The notes beneath the pieces are model-generated. The model had not been told where the DNA came from. It ran no database searches and was given only the letters and a program-made list of their open reading frames with translations. This document shows, one piece after another, positions 22,016-57,400 of a stretch of DNA of 64,000 nt (position 1 is the first letter of the stretch; every line of letters begins with the position of its first letter). Where the stretch lies: the NCBI GenBank assembly GCA_036172245.1, contig JAYWIR010000005.1:744001-808000 (forward strand), read 5' to 3'. This DNA is from Raillietiella orientalis (lineage: Eukaryota). A program made the translations under genes and the position numbers.

Positions 22016-33064
<11,049 letters not shown>

Positions 33065-37600: not shown

Positions 37601-38802
37601 GCGGCGTGGGTGCCTCGCATCGCTTTTCGGGCGGGGTGAAGCGTTCTGTGCGGGGACGGCAAGAGTGTCGCCGGGCTCCGGCGCTGGCCCTCCTCACCGG
37701 TCCCACGCCGGATTCTCGCCTGGCCGCCGATCCCTTCTTCTCCTCATCGCAGATTCCTGACCACCTTTCCGTTTCAGAACGCAGATTCGAAATCTTCGCC
37801 AGTGTCCGAATTTCGCCGGTCGTCAAAGGCGGGTTTCGCCTCCTCACGTACGAACTCCCTGAACAGGTCCAGGAAGTCGCTGGCATCCGAGAAGTTGTCT
37901 TCCACGGAAAACAGGAGCGAATCCTTGCCCAACAATTCGTCGCCGAAGCTGCATGCCGAGAAGAAACTGGATCCTGAGTGACGGGCGAAGTTCACTTTCC
38001 TACGCCCGCAAGAGATGGGACCCCCAGTGCCGTGTCCCTTCCGCATGAGACCATCAGACTGCCCTACTTATTCAGTAACGTCCAAAGTACCTGAAGTTAA
38101 GTTGAAGTGCGGTGTTGCTATTCTTTTTTTACAACGGCAGTTCGGACGGAGCGATGGCCCCGAGCTGTAAGAAAAAAGCTCGTAATTTCCCAGTTTGGAA
38201 GTGAGTTGTTGGGAAAATAAAAACCAAAAAAAAAAAATTTGTTCCGATGGCGCGGGGCGTCTGGGTGGTGACTGCTTGCAGCCTGCGCCACTTGCTCCCC
38301 TAGTGCCTACCTCAACCAACCGCTTGTGCCGAGGCGAAGGTCCTCTCCATGGCAACGCCGGACTGCACGGGCTTTGCTGACACTGTGCGCCGTTTCCCTG
38401 TTGCAGGCGCACGGATACCGCTGCAGCCCGGCCAGGAGGAGAGCACCAGGAGATGCGGCGTTGTGTTCTGCGTCGAGAGCCCCCGCTCTTGGAAGGAGTT
38501 GGGTCAATTTCGTTATAGCAGACGCCCCTCTGGCAGTTCGCGAACGCGGTGGTAGTCGTTGCGGGAGACACTTCGGTTCGAAAAGAGCTCTCCTCATCTT
38601 CGGTGCACACCAAAAGCTTCGGGTGGAAGTGGCTCTCTACTGGTCTCGATTTATTTTCCCTCCTGTCGTGAGTCCCACCAGGGCGTCGAGCAGGGAGGGG
38701 GATGGGGCGGGGAAGGGCAACGCGGAGCATCCGAAATCTGCAATCGCGGCGGGTGCCGGGTGGGATGTGCGGGCAGGGGGAAGGATGGAGGCTTTGCTGC
38801 CT

Positions 38803-39481
38803 TCAGTTCTTCTGGCGGCACTCCTGCAGGAGCTCCTCATACTCTTTCAGCTGTTTCTGAAAGCCCAAGTTAGGGTGGCTGACTTGTCGTTTGCTTCTGA
38901 CCAGCGCGAGAGCATCATTGAAATTCATTTGCAAACTTCTCATCAGGTACGCAACCACAAAAGTAATGGACCGCGATATGCCGGCGTTGCAGTGTACCAG
39001 CACGGCGCCTTTGGCCATCCCGACCCTGATGAAATCGAATGTTTCGGAAAAATACAAGGAGATCGGGAAGTTGGGGTCATCGATGATGTTCAGCTTCTTG
39101 TATTCTATGTCTTCCGGGAAGCAGTTGCGGATGCCCGTCGCCACGTTCAGGATGTGCGTCACGTTGTGCTCCCGCAGCAGCTCTCGGTTCGAAGCGACCC
39201 ACTGGGTTCCTGGAGGCGAGAGATTCTCACACCCTCGCGTGTGCTGCCAACTTACCAACCAGGAGGTTCGGTATGATGACCGCCGGCTCGTTGTCCGACG
39301 GCTTAACCATGGAGGGTTGCATGGTCCTCAGGAGGGGTACGTTGAAAATCGGGCAGCAGCTTCCGTCGGAAGGGTCCATCTGCAGCGCACCAATCGCGTC
39401 CGCGCCTGTGGCTGGGCTTACGTTGGGGCACGGTGGGCGCGACTCCTTCCGATCATCCTTCCCCTCCTCGTGCTGGTACAT
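38803..39481 (-). CDS. DUSP19: Dual-specificity phosphatase, DUSP19-like (exons 39256-39481, 38803-39209; 46-nt intron)
   Basis: IIPNLLVG|TQWVASNRELLREHNVTHILNVA, IIDDP acid loop, intact catalytic loop VLVHCNAGISRS, AYLM and PNLGFQKQL. GT at 39255, AG ending 39210. Orthology to DUSP19 is from recalled motif similarity. Confidence 0.88.
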
Positions 39482-39715
39482 CTGATCTAACGAACAAACA
39501 AGACACTCTTGCGCTAGGCCAATAATTTTAATCGGTCAGAAGTAGAGAGGGCTCCGCTATCGGGTACGCCCTCAGTCACACTATGCGTTCGCGTCCAATC
39601 CCACCCGACCCCTTCCCTGTCCGTCTTGCTCTCTCGCCAGTCGGTATCTGCAAAAGGCACTCCCTGAACGGGGTCGTGAGCATCGGTTTTGTCCTGGACC
39701 TACTCGTGGGGACCG

Positions 39716-42700
39716 TCAATTCAGGGATGGACTCTCCCCACGGTCCCACTGCACTTCTATGTTGGGCCACTTGGTCTGCAGGCACGTCTGCATGGGGTCG
39801 TTGTCCACGGCGTACTTGACGTTGGATGCCAGCAACGCAGCCACTCCTCTATCGTATACCACCTGACAAAGCAACAAATCAGATAAGGTTCGCTTCCTTA
39901 GATGGGATGCAAGCATCCACATCCGCTGGCCGCCGGCGGCATTCGTACACGTTTGGGGGACGATGAGGACGGAAGGTGCCGATGGCGCGGGCGGGAACGA
40001 GGGGGAAGGGTGGGTTACCACCCGGGTACGCCCGGGGCGAGGGGGAAGGGGGGGGGACGGCAGTGGCGCAAGTCCGCAATTCATCGCTTGCAGCGATCAA
40101 CGCCGAATTCTGAATCGGAGACCTGCGAACAGCAGAGAGGGCAGAAAAGAAGGGAGAGCGAGGAAAAGAGAGAGAAAAAAAAGGGAGGGGGGGGCAGAAG
40201 CGGGTCCCAGGAAGGGCAAGACAGGCACTCGCGCTTCGGTCTACGTGCGTGCGTCCTCCAAGCAATACCTTTCCGTTCGGCTTAGATCCGACAAGTCCGT
40301 TACAGTGGTAAATGACGAAAGTCTCGGTCACTTCCGGTTCCCTAGCATCCGGGAAGAACTCCTCCTTGAAGGAATTCCATATAATTATACCCAGATTTTC
40401 ACTGTCGAGCTTCTTCTTGATGAAGTCCACGCTTGAGGGGAGGTGGTTAGCGCGGCGGCGGTGCGGCGGCGGCGCACGTGCGCGCCGGGCACGGGGAATG
40501 CACTTACTACAGGGGGTCGCAGACCAGGCTGCACTTTTCCAAGACCTCGTGCAGCAGCGTGGCAGAGACGAAGCCGTTGCCCTCCGGATCACACTGCTGG
40601 AATATCCGCTTCGCCTTCTCGACCGGGGTCTCCTCCCTGACTAGGCTCGTGCAGCACGAGAACAAAACTGGAAGAGAGAGCGACTGTATCAGTGATTTCC
40701 GGAAATGCTCGCCCGAGCTCGGGAGCACAAAGAGAGGAAGGACGGAAAGGCAGGAGAGGAGGAAATGCATGGCGTACCGGTGAGATGAGATTCGCTACCC
40801 AGGATCCACACCGGGTGCAGCGGATTCTTCAAGTAGTTGCCGACTTCGCAGTACCTTAAATACTCCAGCAGGCTCAGATATCCTATCTGGGATCTGCAAT
40901 CGATTCCGTTCAATCCTAGAATTCTCGAAGAAAAAAAAAAAAGGGAGGGAGGAAAAAAAAAAAAAAAAAGGGAGAAACATGTTTCAGCGACGATGTGTGG
41001 AAGGGCGCGCGGTCGGCGCACGCACACGCATGAGCATCATTGTGAAAGCCACCCACCACCACCCCACCGCGTCCATACAGCATCCCGAAGATCCCGTTCT
41101 CTCGGCAACCTTCGGGCGGGGGCGGAGCGATCGAGGCTTCTCACGTTAGCGTTCGGCCGAGCCGTGACCACTCCGTAACGAGGCTCGGAAAGAAAGCTTC
41201 CCGAAAGCTTGGACGGGACGTGCAGGCTGCAGGCGGTGCTTACCTTCTTCTTCAACAGCATCAACAAACGTGCTCAGTGGCGATCGAACGCGATTCCTTC
41301 GTGCTTGCGCACACGAAACGGACAGCAAACGGACAGCTTCCGGCCCACATGCGGCGACCCCCCCCCCCCCCTTCCCCGCACCGCTCCGCCTCCGCACTTA
41401 CTCAGGCCTCCTATGGTCCGGTCGTTGTCCCACAAGTGGCTAACCGCCTTGCCCGTGATCATCAAATTGATTAAACTCTGACTACCTAATCCATGACTTC
41501 CGTCGATCAGCGACTCCGTCTGATCCTCGAGTTCGGATCGGATGGCCTCCAATCCCTGAAATCAGGACAATGAAGCTTCCGACAGATCGCTCCGTCTGAC
41601 CGGATCGCCAGCACTGGCTGAAGCCACAGTGCTTCCAGACAAGTGGGCAGGGGCATGCGCCTTCCCCGGTCGCCCGACTCACGCGAAAGAACCTGACTGA
41701 CCAACAGGGGAAGGCCAGCGTGAAATGAGCATCAGTCGCGTGGTGGCAGTTTCCCTCGCATTCTTCCTCACGCACTCGATGACCGGTGTTCCCGTGAGGA
41801 AAAAGTAGGCCCACCCCACCAGGCCAAACGGAATTAGACAGCGACTCTCAAAGGAAAAAGACAAAACAAAAAACAAACCAAAAAACTTTTGGACTGAAAG
41901 GTGGTTTAATTCGTGTGCCCTCGAATGAGCCTATCCATCGCTGGAGAAACGCGCGCGAACACTGCCAGGTTGCAATTTACTGGTTCTGGAACACGATTTT
42001 CATCCATGCTCTTAAGAACCCAAGGATGCAGAAAGAAACTCTAGTCTGTTAAGTAGTGGCTTGGCCGTGCCTCGACGGGAGCAGCGCAGTCGAGTTCCAA
42101 CTTCCCGTGAAGCACACGAAGACACGTACATGACCTGACACGCCCACACTTCCGGGGGAACTCCCACGAAATTCTTCGGCCCCCAAAGCGTCTAGTTACA
42201 GAGCGCTAAGCTAAATCAACAGCAGTTTCACGGCTGCTCCGAATCACCGAGCCTCCTGCACTTTGCTTTGCGATGGATAACCACAATTTTTTTCGCAAAG
42301 AATTTCCCGAGGTTCGGCAAAGTGCACCGCCCGGGCGCAAGCGGTCACCAGCAGCCGTTTTTCGCGTTCGGAACACCTGCTAAAAGCTGCCAAACGATGA
42401 GATTTGCTTTCCTTCCTACCCTGAGGAAATCGCTAAAGGAGGGTTCACCGTGAAAACCGACTCTTCTTCCATGGTGGTTTGCAGAGATCAAGGCGATTTC
42501 GAGTTTACAACAAACTGTGGGAGCTCGAAAATTCATTTTTCGCCACCGAATCCTCTTGGAGAGAGCAGGCAATCCTTTGGCAAGGGCGAGTCTCTTGTTT
42601 CAATTTTTTTTGCACAGGTCACGGTTTTGGAGAAAAACGTACCCCGCACGATCACATTTACAACAAGGAAGCACTGCATGCAATTACCAAGTTGATGCGC

Positions 42701-45700
42701 AGATTTACAACGACCACATCAATGCTTCCTTAGACTGCCGAGCAAGCACGGGCAATGTCCAAGGTTTCTACAAACTTCTACGAAACTTACCTTTGTGAGC
42801 ACCACTGAGTATAAAAACATTAAGATGCCAATATCACTTTCAAAAGATTCAATCTGTTCTTCGAGCATCTCCTTCAGTTTTGCTTCTCCAGAAATATTGG
42901 TTAACCTGAAAATTGTGAAGTGACTATGAAGGCTGAAAACAAGAGATGGGCATCATCACCTGAGAAATGAGTGGAATGCTGGTAATTCCAGTTTGTATGA
43001 AGCAGTTTCTCCTCCTGCTTTTCTAATTGAAGAATTCCTCACTTCTTTTTCTGGATAACAAATCCAGTAGGAATCATGCTTAGCAATCTGTATCAGGATA
43101 TCCACCATGGCCTGAATGAGCAGCTTAGTGCATATACTGCTGGGGAGCTAGAATGGTTATGCTGTCATCGTGGAATTATGGCAGAGAATGCCATTATTGC
43201 ATTGAGCGAAGAGTAACTCATAGTAGAATTCTATCCAAGCTGGACAACTGCTTATCAAATGTATTGTTAGAATCACATTCAGTCCAACGTACAGTTTGTT
43301 TGTTTTTTATTTTCAAAGGTTCATATTCACTTGCCATATTTGAAGATGAGTTACATTATGAGACATCTGGTCTCAGTCATTTCAAGTAACTATCCTTGCA
43401 CCGAAGTTTTCTCATTTGAGCATTTGTTATGCAAATTCAGAAAAATACTTGGATGTTTAAAGCAACAATCCAAATATAGAACCAATAACATATACTCTTG
43501 TTACTGAAACACTCGTGCAACTTGCAGCCGTTTTAAAAACTACATAGTCTACACATGAAGGCAGCTACAAACTCTGTTTTTACTTTCGTGGCTCTGGGAA
43601 TTAACAGAAAATACTGACTAGCTAAGCTAAACTTAAGCGTTAACTGCTGCACGCACACACAAAAATAAAATGCAAAGAAGCTAAACATTTCCCTTATCAG
43701 TAATATGCACCAACAGTCTGATGAAATATGAGGTTGAAATTATCAAATTGTGATTTCGTACATCAATAATGGCATCAACTTGCACAACTCGTAGGGTGTC
43801 ACATCCCTGAGGGCAAAGGCAGACTTGTATGAAAACCTTAAATACAAATCCTATGTATCACATGGACCTGATGAAGCACTTTGAGGAACTCAAATAGTAG
43901 ACGTAAACAAGAGACGTGGTTACTTTCGAGCAGAAAAGAAATCTTCACTTTTTTTCAACACTGTCAGCACAGTTTCTGTAGCCTGCCATCAACATAACAT
44001 TCACATCGAATTGTGTTCCGAAAACCGTATGTTGACTTAAGGCCCTTTCTGTTTAAAACTAAACTCATCTTCGTATGCTATTGGCCACCAAAGTTTCAAA
44101 CCCATAGGATACCAGGAAAGGGAAGACTGTTCAAAGAAAAATGAGTTTATATAAGAGCAATGAAATCCTTTTTCAGTAATAAGGAACACAGAAAAAAAGA
44201 ATCACAGATAATCTTTTAGAAAAAAATTGAAAGAAACTCGACACAAAACATGAGAATTTTGAATCCCATATCATTCTAATCAAGCAGCAAAAATCATTTG
44301 AATTTGCAGGTGCAGCTGTGTTCACCATAAATGTAACTACATGATCGTCACATGTAAGACTGATACAGTAGGCTGGCAGCAAAAGGCTGAGCGAGGAATC
44401 ACTTCAACCTGGATAATTGGGGCATAGGAGATGTCAGAGAAACGCAAAAATTTGAACACAGGAACGGAAAATGGGAAAAACAACATTCAAAGGAAATAGT
44501 TTCACCATGCACTTAACAGTCATTAGATTATGTGTGACAGCAATTATGTTTTTCTCTGAGAAAACTACTGTGGCAATCCACAATCAGTTGAGATACAGCT
44601 CTTGAAATGCAATCAAAAAAAGTAACAACCAAAAGGTTCCATTCCACAGAAGCATTTGTTTGGATTTGGATTGAAGGTGTACTATAGAAAGGCGTAGCAA
44701 TATTTTTGAAAGGATATAAACAAACATTGCACACAAGCTCCAATGGATTTAACCTTAAACCTCAAACAATATTGTTTCAAATGAGATCAACAAAATTCGA
44801 ATTTCAACACATACAGAGAACTTACATGTCTGAACTCCTTCAAACAAGGAATTTCACTTATCATACCAGTATACAACATTCAAAATAACTCAAACAACTG
44901 TTCTGAATTATGTAAAACAAGGGTCCAACAATGCAAAATCTGAAACTATCAACTGCTCATTAAAATTTTACTAACGTACAAAATCTAAGAGGAAGTTTTA
45001 CCACAAATCTGAAAAAATTTCTTGGTACTAATTCAATTAATAATGGTCACATGGAAATCTTCGGCAGATGCAATTAAAGCAGAGTGCAGAAAATTAAATG
45101 AGTAGCAAATAGATGCACCTACAATCCAAAAAATGCTCACAATATCAGTAACAAACACTAATTTGTGACAATCAAATGAAGAACAAATGATTTGCAAGTA
45201 CTATGCAAATGAATTGGTGCACCAAGATGCCCAAACAAAAAAGTTTGGATTCCTTGTCAAGAATCAATCAGATGAATTATCCCTTTTGATTTAACTCAAA
45301 AAGATTTAACTGAAAAGCAAATAAGCTTGATCAGCAATGGTACAAAAAAAATGTGGCATAGCATAACAAATATGAACTCTTAGACATATGAGTTACTCCC
45401 ATCAATCACATCCGGGAACAATATAATGAATATACAATGTGAATCCAGGCATACTTTAATGACAATGAATTTATGAAAATTCATGTCAAATTTATTTTAA
45501 AAATTCAAGATTTTTGAAGAAACAACTCCAAACGAGAAGTCTGAAGGTTTGACAAATCATTTGCTTTATTCATTAGATAATAATCTTTACTCATATATTT
45601 ATAGGTGTGCAAGAAAGGCAAATGTAAGAGAGCAGAATAATAGCATTGATGAAAACAAAACAAATAACATTAAGTATCATAATAAAACACTCTTTGTTTT

Positions 45701-46655
45701 TAAAATTTTATTGCTAAGGTGATTTAATGGGAAATGAATTAATCAATCTATAACTAAATGCAAAACTGATGTAACTTTTAGAAAACCTAATCAAGGGTGA
45801 CATCAAAATCAAAACATTGATATCCATAACATGGGAAACCTTTACTCATGGCTAATAGATTGCATTATCATGCACCCAACTAAATGATAGAACTGATTTG
45901 AATAAGAAAAAAAAGAAATTCAGGATACAATATTACATCCACGTTTATGCAATTACCATTTTCCAATCTTGCTGAGGAAAGTCTCTAATTAAAGATTTGG
46001 CAATATATGCTTGAACTGGTGCTATAACTGCACATGGACCACCTGCCATCTGTTTCAAAGCAGATGGTTCATCTTCACTAAGAATAAAACCTACAAATGG
46101 AAACTTTATTTGGCTTCAATTCATTGCAACTATGATCTAATGAAACTTAAATTAGCAACAAATGCTGTATCTACTATCTAACAGTTAGCTCTATATGTTC
46201 ACACGTTTTTATATTTGAATCCAACGCATACATCAATGAATAATCAAGGCAATGCTATTCTTGCCGGGCAAAAACTTTTACTTTTGTTCTGTTTGTTTCA
46301 TCTAACAGAATGCCAGCACTTTACGTTAGACGGAAGCAATAGCATTCTTGCTTGCAAACCCAGCATCTTCGACTAACATCCTCGTTTCAAATAACAAATC
46401 TTTCTTAAAAAACTTCGCGTACCAAATCGGTTGAAGCTTATCCTATGGTTAACAGTTCGAATGAATTCAACTACAGGGATTATCTTTACGGTTACTGCTA
46501 AAAGTGAATATGTCTGTGTGTTGGTCTTTTCCTGTTGCTCTTTCGGCATGTTTACCTTGCAGCCATCGGGAAAATATTTCGATTCTTGGTTCGTCTCCCC
46601 AAATTATTTTCTTGGCTTCATTTAACAGCAGTTCGCTGTCGGTGTCGACTGCCAT
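39716..46655 (-). CDS. MINDY3: MINDY3/FAM188A K48 deubiquitinase, 9 exons (46556-46655, 45957-46090, 42960-43147, 42791-42905, 41402-41555, 40778-40915, 40508-40667, 40269-40431, 39716-39862)
   Basis: Phase-consistent splicing gives RWLQGF, catalytic GGPCAVIAPVQA, FLYSVVLTKG, GSQSLINLMITGKAVS, VGNYLKNPLHPVWILGSESHLT (catalytic His), EF-hand-like DPEGNGFV, YHCNGL and C-terminal CLQTKWPNIEVQWDRGESPSLN*. Confidence 0.95.
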
Positions 46656-47359: not shown

Positions 47360-50300
47360 GAAAAGGTACCTGCGCTAGAGAGAAAGAGAAGAAATCGGGA
47401 TGCTGGAGAAGATGAACCTGACGACGGAAAACAACCGCCATCGAATGCGCGGGCAACTTCCATGGACTAAAGCGTGCAGTCTGCCTATTCTCGTACATGC
47501 AGTACGGGGGGAGGAAGCTGAGGGAACGAGCGTAACGGAAGATCCACCATCAACACCTCCTTCCCGCTGAGCATCGAGAGCAGTGCCAGAGAAGGTGCCT
47601 GAACTGGAACGTGAAAAAGAACATCGGGATGCTGGAGAAGATGAACCTGACAACAGAGATCTCCAACTTCCGTCACAAAGATCGGGACTACCAGGCCTCA
47701 GGGCAAGTGATGAAAGTATTCCGCCACCACTACACTGAGTTGCTCAAGAAAAGCGAAGTTGGCCAGAGATTCGACGGGTCGTGGAGCGAAGGAATCCCAG
47801 ACTACGAGGTTCCATGGACAAAGACTTCAAGGACGAGATTGTCAAGGAGGATTTCCGTAAACCGCGCAAGGACGGGGCGGAGGACCCTGATAGACGGCTC
47901 AGCATCCACTGCCAGAAGTTCCTGAGAACTCCCCTGCACCTGCTTCGTCAGCTGCTGATCCGAGTCCAGGAAGAAGGAAATTTCCCCACTCCTTCATCGG
48001 TGCAGGATGAGACTCCCGCCGAAGGGCGATCTCCGGTGCGCCACCCAGCCAAGACCAACCTCCGTCCTCAACAGCGGTGCAAAGTGGGTGACTAAAAACT
48101 AAAAAAATCTCCCTAGGAAACATCTTGGATGGCCGGTTTCTTCCACGCAGACGTGCGTCCTCCTAGGAGAGCTCTTGTGCAAGAAAAAAAAGTGAGCCCA
48201 ACCTCGCCAAGAATACAAACATTTCCTAGGAAACGACCTGGTGCTGGGCCTCACCGATATGGACTCGGTCGATCACACAGTGCTGCTGAGAATCCTGCGG
48301 AAGGCGGAGGAATCTCAGAGGGAAATCCCGGCGCACGTGGAGGCCACTAGGACACTCCGGGAAAGATCAGGTTCGAGATTTCGATCCGTGGTTCGGCACC
48401 CGAAGATATAAGATTTTACGTGCCTGTCCTGTGTGTTTTGTTTCTGAACTTATCTCCCTTATCATCAAAGTTGTGCATGCATTACACGAGACTCGTGTCA
48501 TGAGCGTTTAATTTTTGCATTGGCGCACCAATTGGAGTGCACCTCTTCAACCTTTATTGTGCTTTCAACGTACACTTATAAAACATTTGGCTAGGAATAT
48601 TCAGATTTCGTGTTGCATCGAATGCACTCGTGATACACGTGCGTGCGTTCCTCGGTGTCGTCGAGTCCATGAAGAGAGAGGATTCGGGCGTGAAAATCAA
48701 TGCCCAGAAAAGTCACCTGTTATTCATCGGAATCCTGGACCTCCCACTCCAACGGAGGAAGGATTCCGAGTGGCGGAAGAGGTGAAGTACCTGGACATCC
48801 ACCTTGGCGACTCCTCCCTATCGCAAAAGTTGTGGAAGGAAATCCTGAGGAAAACTTAAGAGGAGCCAAGTACACCCGGGTCGACTTTAACATGAAGCGG
48901 AGGGCCATCTGGTGGAATGGCGTTCTGCATCCCAAGGTGCTCTACGGATCCTCCTGCAGAATCGGCAAGAAGAACCGAGAAGAAATCGAAAACCTTCAAA
49001 GGAAGATCTTGTGGAGGGAATACAGGTCGAGGGTCAAGCTTTCAAACTTTTATGCCCCCCTCGAGAGGCAGGCGGGACCGGAATGAAGCCGTTAGAGCAC
49101 TCCGTGGACCATGAGCTCGCGGCAACTTTTGCAACTCAACTTTGCTCAGCCTTTCGCAGCGCACAGAGCCTACTAGAAGTTGTTGAACAACTCGAGTGGT
49201 CTCATGTCTGAATTTTGACAGGCGCCACTGGGGAGTGGGGGAACATCGACCCCACTTAGAAAAGAAAACAGGCTTGAATTGGTGAGGCTTCACCAATTCA
49301 AGATCGTGCATAGGAGCAAAGAGGTCTGGGATGAAAAACTGGACCTGGTGATACCCTACTTTGTCCCCGTTCCATCTGGATATACCGGAGGAAAAGGTTG
49401 AAAATCGAACAGTTCGTCACCAGTAGGAATCGCCACCAAGCGCGACTGTTTCTCTGCAGCATGGAAATCAAAGCGACATTTAGTTACCGAACATGGGAGC
49501 TTTGGAAGCAGCTGCCACATCAAACGTGGCTGTTGATGATCAAAGCCAACATGAAAGAAGCAATTTTGAAGAAACATCAAGACGACGTCCCCGATGCAGC
49601 CTCGAGGTCCTACAGACTTGCTCACGCAAACGTGCAGGCGGTCGGAACCTTCCTTCGGGCACTCAGGATGACCTCCTGTTCTATCACGGAGGGATCCTGA
49701 TTGGTTCCAGACTGCGACACTGGACCGAAAACATCCAGGACGGACTCTGCAAGGCGTGTGGAGCGGAAGAAATGCAACTCCATGCGTTCACTTGCTCCAC
49801 GCCCCTACCTGATTGGCAGGCAATGAAGGCAGTGACCGGCCTGCAAAGAAGCAAGAAGTTAGAAATTCTGGCGGACTTGTTTCAGGGGAACGGAAACGCT
49901 GCCCTGTACAACCCGATGGTTCGAACCACGCATATCCTCTTCATCACAGCAATCGTGATAAGAAGGGCAAAGATGCACACATGCTGAAGAGGAGCACCAG
50001 ATTTAGAAATCTTGAAAGCACTCGTGCAGAAAGAGATAGGGGGTCAGGAACTGCGGAACGACCCCGCCTAAACATATCTTTATATCTTGAGGAAGATTGA
50101 AGATTACGTCCAGGCAAAAGGAACAATCCCTCCCTCTCCTACCCTGAACCCAGACTCCAGAAGACGCGCAAGTGGGAAAGTAAAAGTGACGCGAAATAAA
50201 CAGTGCAAAAACAGTGAAGTTATTGGTGAAGAAAACATTGAAAAGGCGGAAAGACTCAAAGTTGTTTGTTAAAAGTCAAAAGTTTGTTTTAATAAATCCA
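47360..50300 (+). mobile_element. Decayed L1/Tx1-like retrotransposon ORF2 (RT, thumb, zinc finger), family C
   Basis: Ordered frameshifted motifs: GNFPTPS, RPTSVLNSGAKWVTK (cf. RPISLLN.DYK), STQTCVL, DSVDHTVLLRIL (cf. KAFDSV.H), EKS..VKYLDIHL, RKILW..SRVKLSNFYAP, CKACGAEEMQLHAFTC; AATAAA near 50291. The central QG/YADD part appears lost or replaced around 48400-48660. Confidence 0.8.
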
Positions 50301-54497: not shown

Positions 54498-57400
54498 TCA
54501 CATCATTTTCTGCCACAATTTGTTAGAATTCTTCAGAATGGTTCTATGTTTCTGCAATGGCTTTTTGGTGATCTTTTCGATCTGAATCGCTTCTCTGCCT
54601 TCTAAATTTAGCATTTCTTCTCCATCTTGACTTTGTTGCTTGAGAGTCTTTTTGACATTGTTTATCTGAAATTCAGAGGCAGATTAGCAGTCATTTATCA
54701 CACATTCGTGTATACATTGAACCCTGCCTCACTTATCTCTACAAGCTGGCAACTGAAAGGATACTTGACATAGCTATGGAGCGTTTAAATGCAATCTCCC
54801 GCGATTCTTTTAACACACAAGGCAGACATGAGTAGCCATTACCTCTATTCCTTTGTACTTGCGAGTAAACATTCAAGTTGCAGATTCACATTAAAACACA
54901 TATCTGACAAAATAATTTTATGGTGGCAGTACTGTATCATATTGAGTGAATGCGCAGCACAACTGCATTCACAAAAATTGACGAACAAAGAAAACTGCTT
55001 AGTTTATAAGATGGATTATATAACATCAAAAAAGATAGTAACAAGACAAACCTCCTGTTCAATTGCTGCTTTCTCTTTTATTCTCCTATCTTTTTCTGCA
55101 TTGGCCCAGACGATGTTGGAATCAATACTCTCCAGAAGAACTTCACATATACTGCACCACTCCTCCAAAGTGTTTATTATAACAGGCAAATGACTACTCT
55201 CAACATCCCTTCCAATTGTATTGTCTATTTCCAATTGATTATTTTTTGGATCTAGCTTCCCATGAATCACACCTATTGAAAGAGAATTAGGGCATTCATT
55301 ATGAGTATTTTACAAAAAGGGCAATTGGGATATTTTAAGGAAACACTTGAAACAAGCAACATTAATTATTTAGTATTCTTGCAAAACAAAAAAATGATCA
55401 TGCATGTTCCAAAAACGAAATTTAATTTTGCTATTTATTTGAAGTGCACGAGAACAAAAGTAAGGACAAGTAAGGTCTAGTACAGAATGCTGCAATTTAA
55501 AAATTTTTCAAAAAATTTACAAATTAGGTCATTTATCCTGCAACTCTTACCAGACTGATGGTCTCATGATACATGATTAAACTTACTAGAACTTTTGATC
55601 ACTGTCAACGGCTCATATACTAATTTTTCCATAAGAGTTTCGATAATTTATTTGAATTCATTCAATGGTTAGAGAAGTTGTCTCAAAAACAAAAAACAAG
55701 TAAGCAACCAGTTTCAAATCTCCAATGTAAGATTTTTTGTTGGTAAAATTTATCAACCAAAGGAAGAAGAAACCAGTACTAATAGACACAAAATGCATTG
55801 CACAGTCTTTCACCTTAGTGAATCAAAAATTGATGCAAACACACAGAAAAGCATATGGGGATTTGTAAATTTATTTGCACAAAATTAATGCTGGTATACA
55901 CCTAATCTGCCCTATTTGCTCTCCTAAATATGTACAACATACTGCCTCTTCACAACTTGGAACTTTGTCTGTGTCATTCTTCCTATGTTTGGCTTTACAA
56001 AGCACCGTTATACATCCTCTGATCTAAGAACCAGTTTAGAAAGATATGTATTTTTGTTACTGCTTTATCATGCATGCACCTAAAAATGTGGTAATATATC
56101 TGATGAGACCTCATTACTTTTCTTCCATTCCAACAGAGTCAAGAAACCAACTAGGTGCTGTAAGTGAAGAATTTTAGTTGCGGAAATTGCCCAACAACAT
56201 TAGAATTTCAAAATTAGAACTTCATGAATAGAGATGTCTTTAAGTACAGAGACGTGCAAGTTATTAATTTGATATAAGAATTTCTGGTTCGATTAATAAT
56301 TGTTAATTTTTTGTGAGCTACTGTTAGTAAAATAGAATTAGGTACTCTAATATAAATAGTGGATATTAAAAGATAGGGAAGGGGACTTATATGGGGACTT
56401 TGCATTTCAAACACCTAGTTGCCAAGAAGATTCATGTTAACCAAATCTGTGCAGATTCAATGAGCTACAGATTCATGAGCATGCTGCCTACACAAACCAT
56501 ACAATACAAGGCTCAGTGCAAAGAATCATATACAAAATGAATGTAAATGTGCTTCTTTAGATGTCTTCTATTGAACTGTCAGTTAACATTAAAAAATCCA
56601 TTCATAAATGCTCAGGTCTAATTGATTGATCAGATCTTCAAATTATCCTAATTCTAAGTTCCCAGACATTATCAAAAACAACTTTATGCATTTTGTCCAC
56701 TGAAGGCTTGAAATACATAATGAAACAAACCTGCCTAAAGGAATGCACCATACTCTTTTATACATCCAGTATCCTTTTATTTCAACGAGCATTTTCGAAT
56801 AATACATTCATAAATATTAACTATTTGAATAGACTGGGGCAGGAAAGATTCCTTCAAATAATTCTTGTTATATTTTGGAAAACAAACAAACAAACAAACA
56901 TGGATTCAATAGTAATACAAGCACATGTGCACAGAAAAAAATACAACACTAAAAAACTCTTTAAAGCAAAACAATGAGGAAACAAGATCAAGACAAATGG
57001 GTGAGTGTTCTAGGAGACAAAAATCATCAGGATGGCTCCAAAAGATATTCATGATCAGCTATATCTTTCACACACCTGTCTATGGATTTCATGCATTTTA
57101 TTAAATGCAAACAACAAAACAAATATAACACTATGATATACAGATCTTTCAATTCTAATGTGCATTATCCTAGTAGTCAAATATATATATATATATTTGA
57201 AATTTAATGTTTTCATACGTATATACATAAATATAGGTATAAACAGATACAAAAATACGAACTTTCTATGACAAGGAAAAAAGTTAGAAGACATTCTTTT
57301 CTTTCGAAAACTTTCTTTGAAAACCCGTAACAGTACTGCATCAAAATGTGCAAAAAAGAAAAAATCTGTTTCATGTCTAGCATTCTAAAATCGCTGAAGA

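Follow-up and report, generated by a model that had tools for sequence, protein, structure and literature searches.

Organization of a tightly spaced MINDY3-DUSP19 gene pair with a possibly operon-like junction

The window analysed here, a stretch of DNA of 64,000 nucleotides, carries two co-oriented genes on its minus strand, MINDY3 followed by DUSP19. The upstream gene has a multi-exon coding span (39716..46655, minus strand) that begins with an ATG at 46655-46653 and ends with CTG AAT TGA, the stop codon TGA occupying 39718-39716. Four of the seven MINDY3 exon ORFs examined matched PF13898 (MINDY-3_4_CD), at 40692-41036 (4.6e-12), 41277-41561 (2.7e-9), 42722-42952 (4.4e-4) and 45948-46115 (1.6e-4), all on the minus strand, which upheld the identity assigned to this gene in the original prediction. 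The translations contained GGPCAV and SESHLT, and we take GGPC to be the catalytic Cys region and SESHLT to be the His region. An EF-hand match (PF13405, E 0.0098) stayed below threshold, scoring 16 bits where 25 were required. The last intron (39863..40268, minus strand, 406 nt, GT..AG) was supported by an RNA joint and leads into a last exon of 48 codons plus the stop in an open frame (39716..39862, minus strand), which weakly matched positions 325-343 of the 344 in PF13898 (E 0.048, below the cut-off). A TAG acceptor-like site was located 5 nt upstream of the MINDY3 ATG.

The downstream gene was modelled with two exons, also on the minus strand. Exon 2 (38803..39209, stop TGA at 38805-38803) encodes the whole catalytic domain and matched DSPc PF00782 with an E value of 9.5e-30, and the translation contains the active-site loop HCNAGISR (HCxxGxxR). 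The top four PDB chains were DUSP19 (best 4d3r, 7.6e-29 to 1.4e-27), DUSP14 scored 7.3e-23, and the named protein matches of the phosphatase were DUSP19; with PF00782 and the best PDB matches, the predicted DUSP identity held and could be narrowed to DUSP19. An intron of 46 nt (39210..39255, GT..AG, RNA joint 39208/39255) separates exon 2 from exon 1 (39256..39481), which as modelled comprises 75 codons plus one base and encodes a lineage-specific peptide. No homologue of these first 75 residues was accepted from a sequence search of 1.84 billion representatives or from atlas scores (at most 0.85), and a lone match of the exon 1 peptide to a 2527-aa repeat protein (E 2.5e-5) was taken as spurious. 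A profile of the N-terminal motif kept in 70 aligned DUSP19 orthologues, run against all six reading frames of the window, gave no coding match, the best hit (E 0.4) being on the wrong strand, and a tblastn search for an upstream DUSP19 coding exon, at E values up to 10, returned only noise. This DUSP19 has lost that motif.

The codon score of exon 1 was +4.1 in frame 0 as compared with −27.8 and −22.7 in the other frames, and the frame of the DUSP19 ATG was open from 39535 through to the intron. The 5' 34 codons scored only −0.9, which was judged no better than true non-coding stretches in their best frame (−3.5 to −5.1), all of these values being rough because the 691-codon training set included one mis-framed 52-codon piece. 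The modelled start at 39481 lies in the context TCAGATGT, which has no purine at −3. Two later in-frame ATGs (39323..39379, minus strand) are possible real starts, one at 39379-39377 in the context GCAGATGG and one at 39325-39323 in the context GACCATGC, where it forms an ACCATG. The true DUSP19 start could be at 39379 or 39325, 100-155 nt further down, and the low score of the 5' 34 codons suggests that it may be the ACCATG at 39325. With a start at either position, 130-185 nt would separate it from the predicted cleavage site of MINDY3, enough to accommodate a promoter.

When the minus strand was re-read, the junction coordinates of the original prediction were all correct. The spacer that separates the DUSP19 ATG from the stop codon of MINDY3 (39482..39715, minus strand) is 234 nt long as read from the sequence, a predicted value of about 235 nt being borne out, and by codon score it had no coding signal in any of its three frames. 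It contains a single ATG, at 39683, which starts a 35-codon upstream ORF; the ATG-free run of 199 nt 5' of 39481 was matched in 134 of 2000 shuffles and was not significant. The RNA fold of the spacer was ordinary (z 0.27), 121 of 200 shuffles folding as well. The nearest other recognisable genes are kilobases distant, CNNM ending at about 32086 on the plus strand and a COPS7 exon lying at 55019-55309. The claim that the junction has no room for a promoter is weakened by the later in-frame ATGs and the homologue-free N-terminus of DUSP19.

Only two AWTAAA hexamers are present on the minus strand from 41905 to 38650 (3.2 kb), one past each stop codon. ATTAAA (39527..39532, minus strand), 184 nt past the MINDY3 stop, is the likely MINDY3 poly(A) signal, and AATAAA (38650..38655, minus strand), 148 nt past the DUSP19 stop, is the likely DUSP19 signal. 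The former is among 9 of the 108 hexamers in the window that have a GU-rich stretch downstream; the tract, GTGTCTTGTTTGTTCGTT (39489..39506, minus strand, 14/20 pyrimidines, 11 T), begins 20 nt after it, and cleavage of the MINDY3 transcript is predicted near 39510. The distance from the end of the hexamer to the DUSP19 ATG is 46 nt, and that from the hexamer to the AG is 44 nt. The GU-rich tract at 39506-39489 likely acts both as a downstream poly(A)-site element and as the pyrimidine-rich run before the AG sites. That ATTAAA and the tract run into AG and ATG had also been predicted, and we found each element in its place.

In minus-strand order, an AG (39488-39487), ATCAG (39486-39482) and the ATG (39481-39479) follow one another, so that two acceptor-like AG sites abut the start codon (39482..39488), TTAG ending at 39487 and ATCAG ending at 39482, both being candidate acceptors. 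Across both strands of the window, a YAG abutting an ATG with at least 14 pyrimidines among the 20 upstream nucleotides was found at 7 of 1694 ATGs (0.4%), and a YAG of the same type no more than 10 nt from the ATG at 65 of 1694 (3.8%). The acceptor likeness is partly a by-product, since the GU-rich sequence that follows a poly(A) site resembles a pyrimidine tract in any case. As no upstream exon with the N-terminal motif is present in the window, the site is not explicable as an internal coding acceptor. No GTRAG donor was found in 39862-39482, a region comprising the last MINDY3 exon and the spacer, in agreement with the prediction of no strong local donor, and the weak GT donors GTGTGA (39581) and GTAGGT (39703) lie nearby. 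Phase 0 is shared by the CAG|ATG site and the MINDY3 donors that follow 45957, 42791 and 40269, and the phase arithmetic of the original prediction was therefore right; phase 0 is the commonest intron phase, and the match for in-frame joining is thus unremarkable. The motif layout fits the operon picture first proposed for this junction, our counts quantifying the same observation rather than supplying an independent test of it.

RNA evidence came from the only public run that contains this locus, a metatranscriptome (run X1, share 0.07) with a relative at 95-99%, in which four short contigs had 90-99% likeness to the window. The contigs confirmed four introns, including ones of 45, 46 and 76 nt, with MINDY3 joints at 39860/40267 (the last intron) and 40430/40508; introns of the 45-76 nt class are common in leader-splicing animals. 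Both genes are expressed in the relative and are under purifying selection, exon 1 of DUSP19 having one synonymous difference. None of the contigs lies on 39330-39782, and hence none covers the 5' end of DUSP19 or the acceptor or bridges the two genes; shared transcription of MINDY3 and DUSP19 is unproven. A loose contig end at 38798 corresponds to the diverged 3' UTR of the relative.

Searches for the pair in other genomes and for a leader gave negative results. Among 66 metagenome loci with DUSP relatives (best exon 2 identity 51%), none had a MINDY3-like neighbour at E <0.1, and no close relative was among them. In the window, we found no tRNAs; nor was there a spliced-leader RNA or other Rfam family, whether the gathering score was applied or E values as high as 1 were allowed. 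Leader RNA genes are usually located elsewhere, so their absence from the window is weak evidence. In a CNNM tree, the CNNM of the window fell inside Pancrustacea (SH-aLRT 99), but its exclusion from pancrustaceans was not rejected by an AU test (p 0.78), nor was its exclusion from arthropods (p 0.61), and the constrained trees outscored the quick free search. The DUSP19 tree did not resolve the placement. The top CNNM match, Trichobilharzia (705 bits), was rejected as a close relative, being a model with three tandem copies. The sequence comes from an animal, possibly a pancrustacean, but that placement is not robust.

Taken together, the placement of the poly(A) hexamer, the GU-rich tract, the rare acceptor-like site, the lack of a GTRAG donor and the isolation from other genes lead us to favour, tentatively and at less than even confidence, the reading that the two genes are co-transcribed as an operon-like pair in which DUSP19 would be leader-spliced. 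Polymerase from the MINDY3 promoter would pass the MINDY3 poly(A) site (ATTAAA at 39532-39527, cleavage at about 39510, GU-rich tract at 39506-39489), and the 5' end of the DUSP19 message would be made by splicing at the AG at 39487 or 39482 that abuts the ATG. The most likely donor would be a short spliced leader in trans, and its addition would couple the making of the upstream 3' end to that of the downstream 5' end. Cleavage at about 39510, use of the AG sites, read-through and a spliced leader in this organism are all inferred steps.

This arrangement resembles that of the SL2 operons of C. elegans, in which the genes are co-oriented, the upstream poly(A) signal has within about 50-100 nt of it a U-rich stretch and an acceptor placed a few bases 5' of the downstream ATG, and there is no local donor; unlike theirs, the arrangement here is predicted from sequence motifs, it involves just two genes, and the lineage is not a recognisable nematode one. 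As in the operons of Ciona and Oikopleura, the upstream poly(A) signal lies almost on the downstream acceptor (44 nt from hexamer to AG), whereas in those animals one leader serves both monocistronic and operon genes, the gene density here is far below that of Oikopleura, and the proteins of the window do not group with those of tunicates. The spacing in known operons is comparable: the available text of PMC7986045 gives median intercistronic distances of about 100 bp for C. elegans, 1 bp for Ciona and 31-33 bp for Oikopleura. Within Pancrustacea, the same text confines known leader splicing to copepods and amphipods and gives operons as unreported. Several considerations speak against the operon-like reading: the window yielded no spliced-leader RNA, weak as that evidence is; operons are unreported in Pancrustacea, where the CNNM tree places the window, although not robustly; the acceptor likeness is partly a by-product of the GU-rich tract; and a possible start at 39379 or 39325 would leave the room that an ordinary promoter needs.

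That last consideration belongs to a possible and only somewhat less favoured explanation, in which the two genes are independent units, transcription of DUSP19 starts in the MINDY3 3' UTR or just past the cleavage site, and translation begins at 39481, 39379 or 39325. The AG before the ATG would then stand there by chance or close a small intron in the 5' UTR, for which GTGTGA and GTAGGT would be weak donors. In animals that do not splice leaders, close tandem genes most often are independent units of this kind, and ordinary overlapping tandem units likewise have a 3' end and the next 5' end within the same few hundred bases; unlike in such units, the poly(A) signal here lies 46 nt before the modelled ATG and the acceptor-like site abuts it. 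The 75 residues that have no homologue and the weak 5' 34 codons are compatible with a start at 39325, about 185 nt past the predicted cleavage, and the ATG-free 199 nt before 39481 could serve as a scanned 5' UTR, although such a run is no rarity in the shuffles. In contrast, the frame is open from 39535 and frame 0 leads the other frames across exon 1 by over 25 bits, and if transcription started upstream of 39510, every DUSP19 transcript would carry a complete poly(A) site at its 5' end. The rarity by chance of an abutting acceptor-like site also argues against separate units, and by eye we recognised no core-promoter motif in 39482-39900. A promoter and terminator scan was empty, its consensus being a bacterial one that does not apply to a eukaryote.

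Read-through that involves no leader appears improbable. Here re-initiation or internal entry would allow DUSP19 to be translated from a mature dicistronic mRNA, or else two messages would be cut from a bicistronic precursor. Drosophila provides precedents that need no trans-splicing, the available text of PMC2776167 describing the dicistronic mRNAs of stoned and Adh-Adhr, the processed bicistronic precursor llz/CheB42a and 409 candidate pairs. These pairs (Adh-Adhr, stoned, llz/CheB42a) are, like ours, tight and head-to-tail with a downstream gene that has no evident promoter (PMC2776167, as far as that text goes), but their members are often related in function or sequence, whereas ours are a deubiquitinase and a phosphatase. 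The short spacer with its single ATG is consistent with such a message, as is the one tree that places CNNM among pancrustaceans, although its support for an arthropod identity is not robust. Most transcripts should end at the MINDY3 poly(A) site, given its complete appearance; the spacer has none of the unusual structure that would suggest internal ribosome entry (z 0.27), and TCAGATGT offers no purine at −3 for initiation.

Cis-splicing from a MINDY3 exon to CAG|ATG, through a shared non-coding first exon or as an in-frame deubiquitinase-phosphatase chimera (40269 joined to 39481, for example), seems quite improbable. The common phase 0 of the acceptor and of the donors after 45957, 42791 and 40269 would allow it, the loss of the DUSP19 N-terminal motif makes a borrowed N-terminus conceivable, and the TAG 5 nt before the MINDY3 ATG would permit a shared non-coding first exon. 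However, PF13898 was present in none of the 120 DUSP19-like proteins listed (180-2000 aa), and the relative's RNA contig has an ordinary 40269-to-39862 joint. A fusion search with a MINDY3 exon as query gave no matches, the query being only 45 aa and uninformative. The exon to be skipped has a weak match to the final positions of PF13898 (E 0.048), so a chimera would probably truncate the domain, and DUSP19 retains an ATG and an open frame of its own. The fusion reading is weakly disfavoured. Very unlikely in particular is a single polypeptide with both enzymes, in which CAG|ATG, joined to a phase-0 donor such as that after 40269, would open an alternative terminal module in cis and the MINDY3 part would replace the lost DUSP19 N-terminus.

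If DUSP19 has its own embedded promoter, the locus would be an ordinary tight pair, useful mainly as a warning to annotators, who could easily call read-through or fused models at this junction. If instead DUSP19 rides on MINDY3 transcription in the operon-like manner that we tentatively favour, an enzyme that trims ubiquitin chains and a phosphatase of kinase pathways would by design be regulated together. In that case, the organism would either add to the animals that resolve operons by leader splicing or be an arthropod-like one that has operons; the latter would be new, because none are reported in the trans-splicing crustacean groups in the available text of PMC7986045.

The window is eukaryotic DNA and carries three co-oriented minus-strand genes, COPS7, MINDY3 and DUSP19, two of them components of the ubiquitin system. 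An exon of COPS7, which encodes COP9 signalosome subunit 7, lies at 55019–55309 (PF18392, 4.3e-15) with a donor near 55046; it was the sole match among 124 ORFs in one Pfam scan. The deubiquitinase gene MINDY3 runs from its ATG at 46655 to a stop at 39718–39716, with PF13898 found on four of the seven exon ORFs given, and is directly followed by an orthologue of the phosphatase gene DUSP19 (ATG 39481, stop 38805–38803; PF00782, 9.5e-30), which converges with a plus-strand CNNM gene (26884–32086). Since further Pfam scans of 132 and 63 long ORFs in the window gave no additional match, the recognisable genes lie kilobases apart, the MINDY3–DUSP19 pair excepted. GC content is very uneven across positions 1–64000 (31% to 67% among 2-kb bins), and the long MINDY3 introns (about 43–46 kb) are 32% GC versus 55–60% in exons and flanks. 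Upstream of MINDY3, a 69-nt direct repeat (47360–47428 and 47589–47657, 77% identity, 229 nt apart) contains plus-strand open frames and may belong to an unrecognised, divergent gene.

The observation made at the MINDY3–DUSP19 junction was confirmed, and every junction coordinate of the original prediction proved correct when read from the sequence. The spacer between stop and ATG is very short (234 nt), and on the minus strand an ATTAAA at 39532–39527 and a GU-rich tract at 39506–39489 are followed by TTAG, ATCAG and, directly, ATG 39481, the two AGs forming an acceptor-like site. The noted lack of a strong local donor also held, with no GTRAG match between the last MINDY3 acceptor and this ATG. 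The layout exceeds chance in two respects, the placement of the hexamers and the rarity of the abutting YAG. Over 3.2 kb of the minus strand (41905–38650), AWTAAA occurs only twice, 184 nt past the MINDY3 stop and 148 nt past the DUSP19 stop, which would mark both hexamers as real poly(A) signals, while a YAG abutting the ATG and preceded by at least 14 pyrimidines in 20 nt was found at 7 of the 1694 ATGs in the window. The standard architecture of animal poly(A) sites is a signal, a CA and then a GU-rich element, and the MINDY3 site, with CA at 39511–39510 and the GU-rich tract immediately after, appears to have it. Cleavage of the MINDY3 transcript is predicted near 39510, which would place the modelled DUSP19 ATG about 29 nt beyond the MINDY3 3′ end. 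Unusual RNA structure was not found in the spacer (z 0.27), nor was its ATG-free run significant (matched by 134 of 2000 shuffles).

In operons of leader-splicing animals, a poly(A) signal is followed by a U-rich stretch, an AG and an ATG, no local donor is present and the genes are isolated from others; the junction presents the same order, likewise has no local donor, and the pair is similarly isolated. In C. elegans the median intercistronic distance is about 100 bp, against 31–33 bp in Oikopleura and 1 bp in Ciona (PMC7986045). Co-transcription of MINDY3 and DUSP19, resolved by a short spliced leader added in trans to the downstream mRNA, is the reading that we tentatively place first, at less than even confidence. 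The weights given to this reading and its three rivals follow from the chance rarity of the layout and from the uncertain lineage of the organism.

CNNM combines PF01595 with a CNBH domain (PF25562), an arrangement of the animal type; its 382-residue exon aligned with arthropod proteins at 80–92% coverage and about 50% identity, and in a quick tree the gene grouped within Pancrustacea (SH-aLRT 99). Because AU tests did not reject trees with CNNM outside pancrustaceans (p 0.78) or outside arthropods (p 0.61), and the DUSP19 tree gave no lineage information, we treat the organism as an unplaced animal, which affects the priors on leader trans-splicing. The process is known from nematodes, flatworms, tunicates, rotifers, cnidarians, ctenophores, chaetognaths, copepods and amphipods; in several such groups, copepods and amphipods included, operons are unreported (PMC7986045; PMC4664967). 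No Rfam family, leader RNAs included, was found in the 64-kb window. At 26884–27050 (plus strand), the large CNNM exon lacks an in-frame ATG ahead of residue 56 and follows an acceptor-like CACAG near 26970, which points to one or more exons further upstream, probably encoding the signal peptide. The top-scoring CNNM match, a 1477-aa Trichobilharzia gene model with three near-identical tandem CNNM segments and Ku domains, is probably merged or mis-assembled.

Without leader splicing, the same layout arises from overlapping independent units, from dicistronic or processed bicistronic transcripts as described in Drosophila (PMC2776167), or from cis-splicing from an upstream exon. A promoter of its own, embedded ahead of DUSP19, is a somewhat unlikely explanation, later start codons included. 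The original prediction of no room for a promoter is weakened by the in-frame ATGs at 39379 and 39325 (the latter in an ACCATG context). In a rough codon model, the ATG frame scored +4.1 over the whole of exon 1, the other two frames −27.8 and −22.7. Taken alone, its first 34 codons scored −0.9, not above what the best frame reaches in true non-coding DNA, so either later ATG could be the true start; between it and the predicted MINDY3 cleavage site, 130–185 nt would be left to hold a core promoter and short leader. Exon 1 also contains a 42-nt GT..AG stretch (39380–39421, minus strand), in frame and stop-free, that ends in a second CAG|ATG (ATG 39379–39377); as confirmed short introns here measure 45–46 nt, it may represent a very small facultative intron.

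Leaderless read-through from MINDY3 into DUSP19, as in the Drosophila-type transcripts, is improbable, and cis-splicing onto the acceptor-like site is quite doubtful. As claimed, this site and the MINDY3 donors after 40269, 42791 and 45957 are all phase 0. The gene is a DUSP19 by its named relatives in cnidarians, echinoderms, molluscs and arthropods (45–57% identity) and by the best four solved chains. An N-terminal motif is common to 70 aligned orthologues; at 39256–39481 (minus strand) it is absent, with a 75-residue peptide in its place for which neither the atlas nor, one spurious match aside, a set of 1.84 billion representatives yielded a homologue. Searching all frames of the window with the orthologues' N-terminal profile yielded no exon (best E 0.4, plus strand), and the full-length profile matched exon 2 only (8.4e-56), so the acceptor-like site is not simply that of an internal coding exon whose upstream neighbour was missed.

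Contigs from one public metatranscriptome run that includes a close relative (word share 0.07) covered part of the locus, four being placed at 90–99% likeness, all outside the junction. They confirmed minus-strand introns in DUSP19 (46 nt, 39255–39210) and MINDY3 (76 nt, 40507–40432, and the last, 406 nt, 40268–39863). These contigs, together with 13 synonymous differences out of 15 (DUSP19 6/6, MINDY3 7/9), indicate expression of both genes, and purifying selection on them, in the relative. One contig skips 45 nt in frame in DUSP19 exon 2 (38901–38857, GT..AG), removing the RP..PN.GF region conserved in all orthologues; the skip resembles either an exitron-like isoform or a product of mis-splicing. 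An in-frame MINDY3–DUSP19 chimera by cis-splicing is very improbable, given the relative's ordinary joint to the last MINDY3 exon, the weak match (E 0.048) between that exon and the final part of the MINDY domain model and the presence of a MINDY domain in none of 120 DUSP19-like proteins of 180–2000 aa. Taken together, MINDY3–DUSP19 is not yet a discovery, and is either a credible candidate for an operon-like pair of a known kind or an ordinary tight gene pair.
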